A DNA stretch of 61,518 bases from a virus (taxonomy: Duplodnaviria; Caudoviricetes), in the IMG/VR virus record IMGVR_UViG_3300020595_000037, positions 1 to 61,518 of that record, one strand, 5' to 3'. The position numbers and the translations under genes are program-made. The notes beneath the pieces were generated by a model. It worked only from the letters and a program-made list of their open reading frames with translations, made no database searches and had not been told where the DNA came from. Shown here one piece after another: positions 46,308-51,804 of this stretch (position 1 is the stretch's first letter; each line of letters opens with the position of its first letter).

Positions 46308-46405
46308 GTCTTATTCACTCTGTTATAATGTTGATCAAGTAGCATGTTGGCAACTTCCATGCTGATCATATTGTCGTTGTATAATTGCCATACTAACTTA
46401 CTCAT
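46304..46405 (-). CDS. 33-aa hypothetical protein
   Basis: MSKLVWQLYNDNMISMEVANMLLDQHYNRVNKT; short overlaps at both ends. Confidence 0.5.
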   Translation of the reverse strand: MSKLVWQLYNDNMISMEVANMLLDQHYNRVNKT

Positions 46406-47252
46406 AGTTACGAATAGTTTTAAACAATGGATGTCTGTAGCTGCCATATTGAGTACGTTCAAAGTATGTAAACGTAGCTCGTTTGCCTATGTAGTCATGA
46501 ATATTATTTAGTATATTAGCTAGATCTTTGTAGTTGTAACCTTTACCTGGAGGACAACCAAACTCTATACCATCATCATCTTGCATTAAGAACTTGCCAA
46601 GAGTACCTTCACGTTTACCTTTACCTTCTTCATAACCAACAATTGTAGCTTCGGTGTCACTAAAGTCTTTAAACTTTTGTAAGTTGTAAGATCGTTTTTG
46701 CTGATAAGGTTTATCTAGACGTAGAATAGAGCCTTCGTAACCATTGTTTAAGTTATATTGATGTCTTAACTGTGCAGACTCTTTAGAATTAACTAGACTA
46801 GTTTCTACGTATTTAATAGATGCATTGTAAAAATCAGCACAAGCTAGTTGATCAGACCTGTAACCGTAAGGCTTATCCATTACTGTTTCTATATAGTCAT
46901 AGCAATGAAACTGTATAAGATGTTGAGCGTTAAGTCTGTCTTCAGGTGTTGGTTTTTGTTTTCTAACTAGAGATACAATCTTTTCAAAGTCATTTCTAAG
47001 TTTGTGGTTGTATAATTCACCGTCGAGTACAACATCTACATTAGCATAATCAAAGAAAAACTTTCTTAGTGATAATTTAATGTGTTCAAGATTGTGAAAT
47101 TCTTTACCTGTACGTGAGAAACATCTAATGTTTTCTTTGTCGTCAACATATATAACACAACGTATGCCGTCAAGCTTAGGTTGAATGTATACTTTCTCGG
47201 ACCAGTCGACAGGTTTTTTGTCTACTTTGTATGCGAGCATTGGTTTAATCAT
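46398..47252 (-). CDS. ATP-dependent DNA ligase
   Basis: KLDGIR adenylation motif, LDGELY, YD, EGSILR, KFK, C-terminal OB fold. Confidence 0.92.
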   Translation of the reverse strand: MIKPMLAYKVDKKPVDWSEKVYIQPKLDGIRCVIYVDDKENIRCFSRTGKEFHNLEHIKLSLRKFFFDYANVDVVLDGELYNHKLRNDFEKIVSLVRKQKPTPEDRLNAQHLIQFHCYDYIETVMDKPYGYRSDQLACADFYNASIKYVETSLVNSKESAQLRHQYNLNNGYEGSILRLDKPYQQKRSYNLQKFKDFSDTEATIVGYEEGKGKREGTLGKFLMQDDDGIEFGCPPGKGYNYKDLANILNNIHDYIGKRATFTYFERTQYGSYRHPLFKTIRNYE

Positions 47253-49091: not shown

Positions 49092-49129
49092 ATTTATATT
49101 ATCCGTGTTAATTCGTATTTAGTCTGTAA
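49092..49129 (-). promoter_or_regulatory. Repeated early motif, copy B
   Basis: TTACAGACTAAATACGA-N8-GGATAATATAAAT then ATG. Confidence 0.8.
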
Positions 49130-49331
49130 CATATCTTTCTTTGTTACTATCGATTATTTCACCGATCTCATCTTGCATAGATATTATATCCATAGCAAGT
49201 AGTTGTATTTCTGCTAAGCCATTAACTTCATAAGTACTTAGATCATTGACTTCGTTTTCTTGTATAGCGTACACGCAGTCTTGCAACGCTTTTGCAGTAT
49301 TCTCAAACCTGCAATAACTCATATTTGGCAT
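49119..49331 (-). CDS. Conserved hypothetical phage protein
   Basis: MPNMSYCRFENT..L.DC N-terminal motif. Confidence 0.7.
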   Translation of the reverse strand: MPNMSYCRFENTAKALQDCVYAIQENEVNDLSTYEVNGLAEIQLLAMDIISMQDEIGEIIDSNKERYVTD

Positions 49332-49351
49332 ATTTAATTATTTAATATTAG

Positions 49352-49423
<72 letters not shown>

Positions 49424-49428
49424 TTTAG

Positions 49429-49512
49429 TGGAAGTGGGCGGAATCGAACCGCCGTTTGAGATTGCTACCGTTAATTTGTCGGTTCTAAAATCTCACTTAC
49501 CTTATCACTCCC
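49429..49512 (-). ncRNA. tRNA-like RNA resembling the isolated tRNA-like domain of tmRNA
   Basis: Acceptor GGGAGTG/CACTTCC-A with G3-U70, unpaired 10-nt D loop, helix TGAGATT/AATCTCA, 3-nt linker, T arm GGCGG-TTCGATT-CCGCC. Confidence 0.75.
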
Positions 49513-49515
49513 ATT

Positions 49516-49664
49516 TCGAGGCACCAGTTGTGGACAGGTAGTTAACTAGTATTGTCATTTATCCACACTTTCTGTTTCGTACTGGTACAGTAGAACGCCA
49601 TTTTTACTTGCCATTACACTATTGTACCGATCTACCTAACGTGACCTGTATGCCGCCGCCTCGA
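49516..49664 (-). ncRNA. Unassigned multi-stem structured RNA (149 nt)
   Basis: Closing stem TCGAGGC/GCCTCGA, internal stems and a possible pseudoknot. Confidence 0.6.
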
Positions 49665-49666
49665 TT

Positions 49667-49737
49667 GCTAGCTATTCAGTTATGTGATAACATCTTGCGT
49701 ATAAGATCGCTATCGCTAATTAACCTACTCGTCTAGC
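49667..49737 (-). ncRNA. Unassigned rod-like structured RNA (71 nt)
   Basis: Nested stems GCTAG/CTAGC, GGTTA/TAACT, GATAGC/GTTATC, ATCTT/AAGAT; G-U pairs favour the minus strand. Confidence 0.55.
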
Positions 49738-49742
49738 TTCTT

Positions 49743-49931
49743 TTATTTTCTACGCCAAGCTTTGTGTACTTGATCACTTAGTTCTTGACTTACTACTTGT
49801 ATTTCTAGAACTTGTTTGTTAGCAATAATAGGTATATAGCTATATTGCTGAGTTGAACTACAGTTTACACAATTTGAATAACCTAATGCTATTCTGCCTG
49901 CCGGTATTTTATTATTACATTTGCATCTCAT
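49743..49931 (-). CDS. Small zinc-finger protein (DksA/TraR-like finger)
   Basis: CKC...IPAGRIALGY..CVNCS; ATG directly after motif copy C. Confidence 0.65.
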   Translation of the reverse strand: MRCKCNNKIPAGRIALGYSNCVNCSSTQQYSYIPIIANKQVLEIQVVSQELSDQVHKAWRRK

Positions 49932-51763: not shown

Positions 51764-51804
51764 TTGACATGAGTGGAATCGAACCACTGCTAACCATTAT
51801 GTCA
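51764..51804 (-). ncRNA. tRNA minihelix-like element (acceptor stem plus T arm only)
   Basis: TGACAT-A-ATGGTTAGC-AGTGG-TTCGATT-CCACT-C-ATGTCA-A. Confidence 0.55.

Follow-up and report, generated by a model that had tools for sequence, protein, structure and literature searches.

A phage gene family for a putative tag-less tmRNA reduced to the tRNA-like domain

A locus of structured RNAs in a podovirus-like genome

The window analysed here is an entire IMG/VR virus record of 61.5 kb (61,518 nucleotides), which is estimated to be 95% complete and has a GC content of ∼32%. The terminase and portal proteins match PHROG families. The terminase shares 63% identity with that of an uncultured podovirus (MW202828.1), 44% with that of Flavobacterium phage elemo, 36–39% with those of Cellulophaga phages and 31% with that of Tenacibaculum phage Gundel_1. 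On the basis of these identities the phage is judged to be a relative of Flavobacteriia podoviruses from marine samples, and the samples that carry matching sequence are mostly marine metagenomes. A tyrosine integrase (PF00589) was not found in the 95%-complete genome, and the phage is apparently lytic, without an integrase. Neither an SmpB gene nor a hydrolase of the RF-1/ArfB or Pth type was found in this genome.

The ORFs at 49119–49331 and 49743–49931 are separated by a gap of 411 nt that holds four RNAs: the modules W and X, an 84 nt element that we call the mini-tmRNA and a tRNA-Met. The first base of the mini-tmRNA adjoins the upstream module, while its discriminator base A73 lies 5 nt before the tRNA-Met. 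The features of the locus (TLD, tRNA-like domain) are as follows.

49743–49931, minus strand: 62-residue ORF upstream of the RNA array; its four cysteines are spaced C-x-C ... C-x2-C (ORF list)
49667–49737, minus strand: structured module W, with a GCUAG...CUAGC closing stem and a variable hairpin, just 3′ of the stop codon of the zinc-ribbon ORF (read by eye)
49517–49663, minus strand: structured RNA X, directly upstream of the mini-tmRNA, with a closing stem and an H-type pseudoknot
49429–49512, minus strand: mini-tmRNA (TLD-only) gene, 84 nt from G1 (49512) to the discriminator A73 (49429) (sequence, fold, RF00023 and the family model R2)
49506–49512, minus strand: acceptor 5′ strand GGGAGUG, paired with 49430–49436 in the fold
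49496–49505, minus strand: D-loop analogue AUAAGGUAAG, stemless and 10 nt long, with A8 at 49505 and GG; unpaired in the fold
49457–49495, minus strand: P2-like helix and its loop; 7 bp UGAGAUU/AAUCUCA, 49489–49495 with 49457–49463 (fold)
49464–49488, minus strand: 25 nt loop with a 4 bp hairpin (fold)
49454–49456, minus strand: AAC linker 5′ of the T arm, invariant in the 25 sequences of alignment A1
49437–49453, minus strand: T arm GGCGG-UUCGAUU-CCGCC with a perfect stem (fold)
49430–49436, minus strand: acceptor 3′ strand CACUUCC (fold and relatives)
49426–49428, minus strand: 3′ trailer CUA, followed by AA and then the 5′ end of the tRNA-Met (sequence)
49351–49423, minus strand: tRNA-Met (CAU), directly downstream of the mini-tmRNA (ARAGORN; RF00005, 70.1 bits)
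46398–47252, minus strand: DNA ligase gene, 2.2 kb downstream of the mini-tmRNA

The fold predicted by ViennaRNA for the mini-tmRNA is exactly this tRNA-like structure. Its minimum free energy is −27.2 kcal/mol, compared with −17.1 ± 3.1 for shuffled sequences (z = −3.27), and one of 200 shuffles is as good. A sequence-only reading of this DNA had described a set of structural features, all of which are present on the minus strand: the pairs G1–C72, G2–C71 and G3–U70, which form part of a 7 bp acceptor stem in both sequence and fold, together with A73, A8, the stemless D loop containing GG, the 7 bp helix, AAC, the T arm and the 25 nt hairpin segment. The terminal CCA is not encoded and the DNA 3′ of A73 reads CUA. 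The mRNA-like domain, with its resume codon, tag frame with stop codon and pseudoknots, is absent from the window element, where there is only the 25 nt loop. ARAGORN, run on the window for tRNAs and tmRNAs, does not call the mini-tmRNA.

The neighbouring tRNA-Met (CAU) has a U1–A72 pair and, at the base of its anticodon stem, three G–C pairs in a row, and it is likewise followed by CUA rather than CCA. RNA X contains a 22 nt loop that is nearly invariant and reads GAUAAAUGACAAUACUAGUUAACU in the window, and it has a site at which an insertion is optional. In 19 distinct relatives of X, 96.6% of the cells are paired and nine of 17 pairs show double changes. Module W consists of the conserved arms ACGAGUAGCUUAAUUAGGU and ACACAUAAGUGAAUAGC flanking a variable hairpin. 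Its closing stem occurs in relatives in six Watson–Crick forms (GCUAG/CUAGC, GCCAG/CUGGC, GCAGG/CCUGC, GCCGG/CCGGC, GUCAG/CUGAC and GUUAG/CUAAC), with the register set by hand; the script that looked for W stems in the relatives missed the copy of W in the window. The 62-residue four-cysteine ORF has no family in a Pfam search, and relatives show the same C terminus, ...AWRRK*, 5′ of their arrays. The position of the tRNA-Met is taken in relatives by other stem-closed RNAs of 75–90 nt, namely Y (L002, L007 and L016), Z (L009 and L014) and V (L121, L124 and L127). For Y, Z and V there is no Rfam match at E ≤ 0.5, and for the flanking modules there is none at E ≤ 0.5 in 13 loci or at E ≤ 10 in the window stretch.

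A further tRNA-like element of 41 nt lies at 51764–51804 on the minus strand. It has an acceptor stem of 6–7 bp, the sequence AAUGGUUAG, a T arm and an A that is followed by CUA; there is no helix and no G–U at position 3:70. It is called by neither ARAGORN nor Rfam and is located inside a weak 63-residue ORF that starts with TTG. About 20 variants with covarying acceptor stems are found in relatives, ∼2 kb upstream of the mini-tmRNA. This sister class, which belongs to the same phages, has A–U, U–A and others at 3:70, G–U not being kept. It may be a processing mark.

RNA-library contigs from three studies (P9, P10 and P12) match the locus, and the whole 3 kb stretch is covered in X15 and X16, although such contigs cannot show a transcript.

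Conservation and synteny of the family

With Rfam at gathering thresholds, the tRNA-Met alone is reported in the window stretch. A search of 501 bases at a permissive threshold aligns the tmRNA model RF00023 to the mini-tmRNA over model positions 1–374, of which 294 in the centre are deleted (38.4 bits, E = 5.8e-14), and relatives score 35–38 bits. The sequence-only reading had proposed a check against tmRNA and tRNA covariance models, and the outcome is divided: RF00023 matches from end to end and is the best match within its clan, but the score remains below the gathering score of 47 bits. Against R2, a second covariance model built from the mini-tmRNA family itself, the window element scores 76.7 bits. 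An ordinary tRNA (RF00005) was considered and rejected, as there is no ARAGORN call, the best clan match is tmRNA and the fold contains no 7 nt anticodon loop.

The window element combines the traits by which a tmRNA TLD is recognized: an acceptor with G3–U70 and A73, a T loop of the tRNA type, a stemless D loop with GG and a P2-like helix. Judged by its sequence, it is a tmRNA tRNA-like domain that carries the identity elements for alanyl-tRNA synthetase (AlaRS) and lacks an mRNA-like domain. This is what the sequence-only reading had proposed, and it is borne out by the RF00023 match and by the retention of G3–U70 and A73 in all 63 distinct sequences of the family.

The family was collected from exact-motif scans of viral contigs, which gave at least 25 distinct elements; these were aligned as A1, from which a covariance model, R1, was built. 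In a scan with a degenerate 5′ pattern almost all of the new loci among the matches listed were chance occurrences, with L085 as the sole new member. At least 63 distinct sequences were gathered in all, from viral and MAG contigs. G1–C72, G2–C71, G3–U70 and A73 are kept in every one of these 63, while the acceptor stem occurs in seven variants and the T arm in 15. The length ranges from 69 to 185 nt (median 90 nt) and the length of the insert varies. According to a script parse, 16 of the 63 have the same D loop as the window element, and the rest have AAAUGGUUAG or a canonical-like ...GGUAUUGA(C). CUA follows A73 in 27 of 29 elements.

In 39 distinct rows, standard pairs occupy 96.8% of the cells, compared with 73.4% after column shuffling and 36–52% with slid partners, in an alignment that was fitted to the model and hence is biased toward structure. 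Double-sided changes are seen in ten of 17 pairs. Pair 4:69, for example, is C–G in 20 rows, A–U in 14, G–C in four and U–A in one, and T-stem pairs 2, 3 and 4 and all five of the modelled helix pairs also covary. Given how large this effect is, and from the raw sequences themselves, there is no doubt that the structure, as predicted, is conserved. The sequence-only reading had named a decaying ordinary tRNA without compensatory changes as the finding that would speak against it; the relatives instead show such changes in these ten pairs.

We further compared 80 viral loci that contain relatives of the DNA ligase gene. R1 finds 47 matches in 46 of these loci. The mini-tmRNA is thus syntenic, since all 47 lie on the strand of the ligase gene and upstream of it. 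In the relatives L151, L171 and L178 it stands alone between two ORFs. The other 34 ligase-linked loci have no R1 match at E ≤ 0.01, and in 22 of them the sequence upstream of the ligase gene extends over 3 kb or more. When these 34 loci are searched with R2 at E ≤ 1, all matches are weak, the best (27.7 bits) being to a 50 nt element, and ARAGORN found no full tmRNA in them. Judging from this distribution, the mini-tmRNA is dispensable among related phages.

Scanning contigs of bacterial genomes with the 3′ pattern gave 11 more R1 matches of at least 39 bits that ARAGORN does not call as a tRNA or a tmRNA. Each of them comes from a MAG contig, and several of these contigs are very short. TLD-only elements in MAG contigs (L210, L213, L215, L219, L227, L228, L234, L244, L245 and L247) are assigned to unrelated phyla, and four are in one Aliivibrio bin; most simply, these elements are mis-binned phage DNA. 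The element L210:2528–2606 (MAG, Actinomycetes, GC 0.70) resembles the actinophage type represented by Mycobacterium phage DS6A.

ARAGORN was also run on ten loci with long variants and made one tmRNA call, at L178:7725–7910 (185 nt), with the tag ERTEVYYIC*. The frame of this tag crosses a conserved cassette motif, and in the related L145 it has no stop 5′ of the T arm; the tag peptide is probably spurious. More generally, tiny tag frames within the loops were considered and rejected, as stop codons fall in some frame of AT-rich loops and none is kept between related cassettes.

Among five GenBank relatives (MW202828.1, Flavobacterium phage elemoE, Cellulophaga phi19:3 and phi38:1, and Tenacibaculum Gundel_1) R1 gives no convincing match, the best scoring 21.7 bits. 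A blastn search of 50,697 phage records with the window element and the L127 type gave no match covering at least 80% of the query. From the comparisons among relatives we regard the mini-tmRNA as a real, conserved and unannotated gene. Its members are unannotated because they fall below the Rfam threshold and are missed by ARAGORN, with L178 alone being called.

The insert at the tip of the helix is related to the rest of the array. In 14 of 52 distinct mini-tmRNA inserts there are exact stretches of at least 18 nt that also occur in the W loop, in the insertion site of X or free-standing. One and the same cassette may be found in the loop of the mini-tmRNA, in that of W, at the X insertion site or free-standing next to the mini-tmRNA, and shuffling of cassettes between scaffolds is seen in L003, L006, L008, L012, L130, L145, L159, L163, L178, L179, L191 and others. 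In tmRNA this helix is directed outward, much as a long variable arm is (PMC3985003). Read most simply, the tip of the mini-tmRNA helix is likewise unconstrained because of this geometry, and so would tolerate the mobile hairpins of the array.

Relationship to tmRNA and to known tag-less forms

In some members of the family the D-loop region reads ...GGUAUUGAC..., which matches the Rfam consensus GGaUU.CGAC and resembles the 5′ end of one Bacteroidaceae tmRNA. The D-loop variant of the window is without the UUCGAC/GGAC letters of this consensus, which other members keep. The 3′ 25 nt of the window type are identical to those of this Bacteroidaceae tmRNA, whose tag is GNENNYALAA. Because GGUAUUGAC fits the consensus and the 3′ end matches a real tmRNA, the family looks like a reduced derivative of the TLD of bacterial tmRNA, and the D loop of the window looks like a shortened version. 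An attempt to name the host from the T arm and acceptor was abandoned: the identical 25-mer is present in tmRNAs of Bacteroidaceae, Saccharibacteria and Chloroflexi, and since it is common to several phyla the host cannot be named from it.

The closest known counterpart is found in Mycobacterium phage DS6A, which is entered as 'TLD only' in tmRNA database papers (Hudson, Lau and Williams 2014, PMC4131195; PMC11915505). Its element, at JN698994 28478–28560, is aligned by RF00023 from end to end with 43.2 bits and by R2 over all model positions with 39.5 bits (E = 8.7e-7). R1 with a fast first pass missed it. Since both RF00023 and R2 align the DS6A element end to end, the window RNA can be taken as the same kind of molecule and, by sequence and predicted fold, belongs to this phage 'TLD only' class. 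Both elements are phage-borne and ∼80 nt long, with a G3–U70 acceptor, A73, a stemless GG D loop and a T arm; in both, a short helix replaces the long P2 and the pseudoknots, there is no tag frame and the RF00023 score is below gathering (43.2 bits for DS6A and 38.4 bits for the window). They differ in their carriers, DS6A being a temperate actinophage with an integrase, whereas the window is an apparently lytic phage of the Flavobacteriia podovirus type without one. The GC content of the match is 0.70 in DS6A and 0.46 in the window, and the D loop is shorter in the window. Unlike DS6A, the window family has loop cassettes that are hypervariable and shuffled, and it lies among other structured RNAs in an array. 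What is new here is the phage lineage and the large family; the kind itself has already been published with DS6A.

The sequence-only reading had pointed only to jakobid mitochondria as a precedent. The TLD-only tmRNA of phage DS6A and the published inhibition of tmRNA by such a molecule had been overlooked (PMC4131195, PMC11915505). According to PMC11915505, tmRNAs without a CDS occur in mitochondria and in two plastids. The jakobid and oomycete mitochondrial tmRNAs and the ∼65 bp plastid forms of Mallomonadaceae likewise consist of a TLD without tag frame or pseudoknots (PMC11915505, PMC3985003), and they raise the same puzzle as the window RNA, namely how rescue ends without a stop codon. 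As described there, the organellar forms are vertically inherited, often two-piece or permuted, and served by a nucleus-encoded SmpB, whereas the window RNA is viral and in one piece and is predicted to rely on the SmpB of the host.

A synthetic TLD of T. thermophilus, closed by UUCG and in complex with SmpB (PDB entry 2CZJ), has the same design, in which the ends of tmRNA are joined by a short hairpin (PMC3985003). In vitro, synthetic TLDs of this kind both bind SmpB and are active on the ribosome (PMC3985003, PMC3929946); these are laboratory constructs, whereas the window carries a natural gene under selection. Full-length tmRNAs are also known from phages, as in the mycobacteriophage Bxz1 group, Bacillus phage G and, in two pieces, the OM43 phage Melnitz (PMC9004378), and these too are phage ssrA homologues among early and tRNA genes. 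They retain the tag frame and the pseudoknots, which the window element does not. Beyond the notes on DS6A, no wider phage family of TLD-only RNAs was found in the literature searched; the supplements of PMC11915505 may list more.

Proposed function and alternative explanations

The reading that we prefer, and to which we give about an even chance, is that the phage gene specifies a functional tag-less mini-tmRNA that would be charged with alanine, use the SmpB of the host, compete with host tmRNA and take over the nascent chain without supplying a degradation tag. As a family, the mini-tmRNAs probably interfere with the rescue-and-tag system of the host. The transcript would be cut at G1 by host RNase P, and the trailer that begins with CUA would be removed and CCA added, as for the phage tRNA-Met that has the same trailer. 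Host AlaRS would then charge the RNA with alanine, as the invariant G3–U70 and A73 suggest. From the homology to the tmRNA TLD, host SmpB is expected to bind the elbow and the D-loop region, and EF-Tu to deliver the complex to ribosomes with an empty A site. There, the mini-tmRNA would accept the stalled nascent chain but would lack a resume codon. On balance it would compete with the tmRNA of the host, both for SmpB and for stalled ribosomes, and would leave stalled products without the degradation tag, among them phage proteins whose mRNAs were damaged or cleaved. There is no evident route for release of the peptidyl-Ala-RNA, because it has no stop codon and the phage encodes no ArfB or Pth.

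Charging by AlaRS is favoured because G3–U70 never drifts to G–C or A–U in the 63 sequences while the neighbouring pair 4:69 does. The 41 nt class of the same phages, alike in overall shape apart from the absent helix, serves as a comparison in which G–U at 3:70 is not retained. SmpB binds to the TLD of tmRNA, in which G3–U70, the identity element for AlaRS, is wholly conserved (PMC3985003). In vitro, polyalanine is synthesized without mRNA when a TLD fragment and SmpB are supplied (Shimizu and Ueda 2006, cited in PMC3929946).

The RNA could instead be a passive sponge that titrates host SmpB and so stops trans-translation, with no need of charging or of entry into the ribosome. The sole published experiment suggests as much: Mao et al. 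2009, as cited in PMC4131195 and PMC11915505, reported that a similar TLD-only molecule in E. coli strongly inhibits tmRNA, and according to PMC4131195 the inhibition is independent of chargeability. Charging may therefore not be the point. Moreover, the D loop and the AAC junction, where SmpB is expected to bind, are the most conserved unpaired parts. A sponge, however, has no need of G3–U70 and A73, yet these never vary in the 63 sequences, in contrast to adjacent pairs; such invariance of the alanine identity set speaks for a charged RNA rather than a passive decoy. Neither does it need a precise tRNA-like 3′ end, yet CUA follows A73 in nearly all of the elements inspected (27 of 29). We consider the sponge a possibility of secondary weight. 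The arrangement of the array allows another explanation, in which the element is a processing mark or a carrier, i.e. a cleavage signal for RNase P or RNase Z that frees the neighbouring RNAs, comparable to the t-elements of plant mitochondria, or a scaffold that displays a functional cassette. The element is directly adjoined by RNA X on its 5′ side and followed on its 3′ side by a tRNA or some other structured RNA, 14 of 52 distinct inserts share exact stretches of at least 18 nt with array sequence outside the mini-tmRNAs, and the same phages carry the 41 nt tRNA-like element without alanine identity. However, recognition by RNase P or RNase Z is independent of G3–U70 and A73, both of which are invariant; in some relatives the element lies between two ORFs with no neighbouring RNA to free; and many members, including that of the window, have only a short plain loop. 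We therefore rate a processing or carrier role as unlikely.

A phage tRNA gene next to the mini-tmRNA and the retained alanine identity elements could also fit a decoy, either for defences and enzymes that target tRNA (anticodon nucleases and tRNA-modifying or tRNA-sensing systems) or for AlaRS. The anticodon nucleases known so far cut the anticodon arm, however, and the mini-tmRNA has none. Nor is there a defence-related gene nearby: nine of ten neighbouring ORFs have no Pfam family and the tenth gives a borderline match to a UvrB/UvrC motif. A decoy for anti-tRNA defences, one of three functions put forward in the sequence-only reading, has no specific support and appears very improbable. 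Least credible, to the point of being nearly discounted, is a non-functional remnant, either a decaying tRNA or tmRNA or a tmRNA-derived attP core. Phages that integrate into ssrA do carry its 3′ end (PMC9004378), and the 3′ 25 nt of the element are identical to those of real tmRNAs from Bacteroidaceae and other bacteria. An attP core was nevertheless rejected, as the element also has a 5′ half, which is paired with its 3′ half, and the 95%-complete genome contains no match to the tyrosine integrase family PF00589. Decay is contradicted by covariation, with compensatory changes in ten of 17 pairs. The element is also syntenic in 46 loci, and its relatives are 63 distinct sequences rather than assembly duplicates of a single one.

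Alanine tailing is performed by RqcH. A phage-run, tmRNA-derived counterpart of this process would exist if the charged mini-tmRNA and host SmpB acted repeatedly on the mRNA-free A site of a stalled ribosome and added one or several alanines to the nascent chain without a template, as might be imagined because a TLD fragment with SmpB does so in vitro (PMC3929946). On the same speculative extension, the tip of the helix, expected to face away from the ribosome, would display the shuffling hairpin cassettes, giving a second, sequence-specific function in some members. We hold this extension to be improbable.

Tag-less tmRNAs have so far been little more than curiosities, known from jakobid mitochondria, two plastids and one mycobacteriophage in the sources cited above. 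The family described here adds natural variants by the dozen, from marine phages whose hosts are of the Bacteroidota type; in these variants the alanine identity is fixed while other positions of the stems drift, which argues that charging matters. Quite apart from the mini-tmRNA, the array of structured RNAs and the hairpin cassettes that shuffle within it form unexplored material. The family would provide a ready mutational series with which to ask whether, in an infected cell, trans-translation is blocked, replaced or put to another use by such RNAs.
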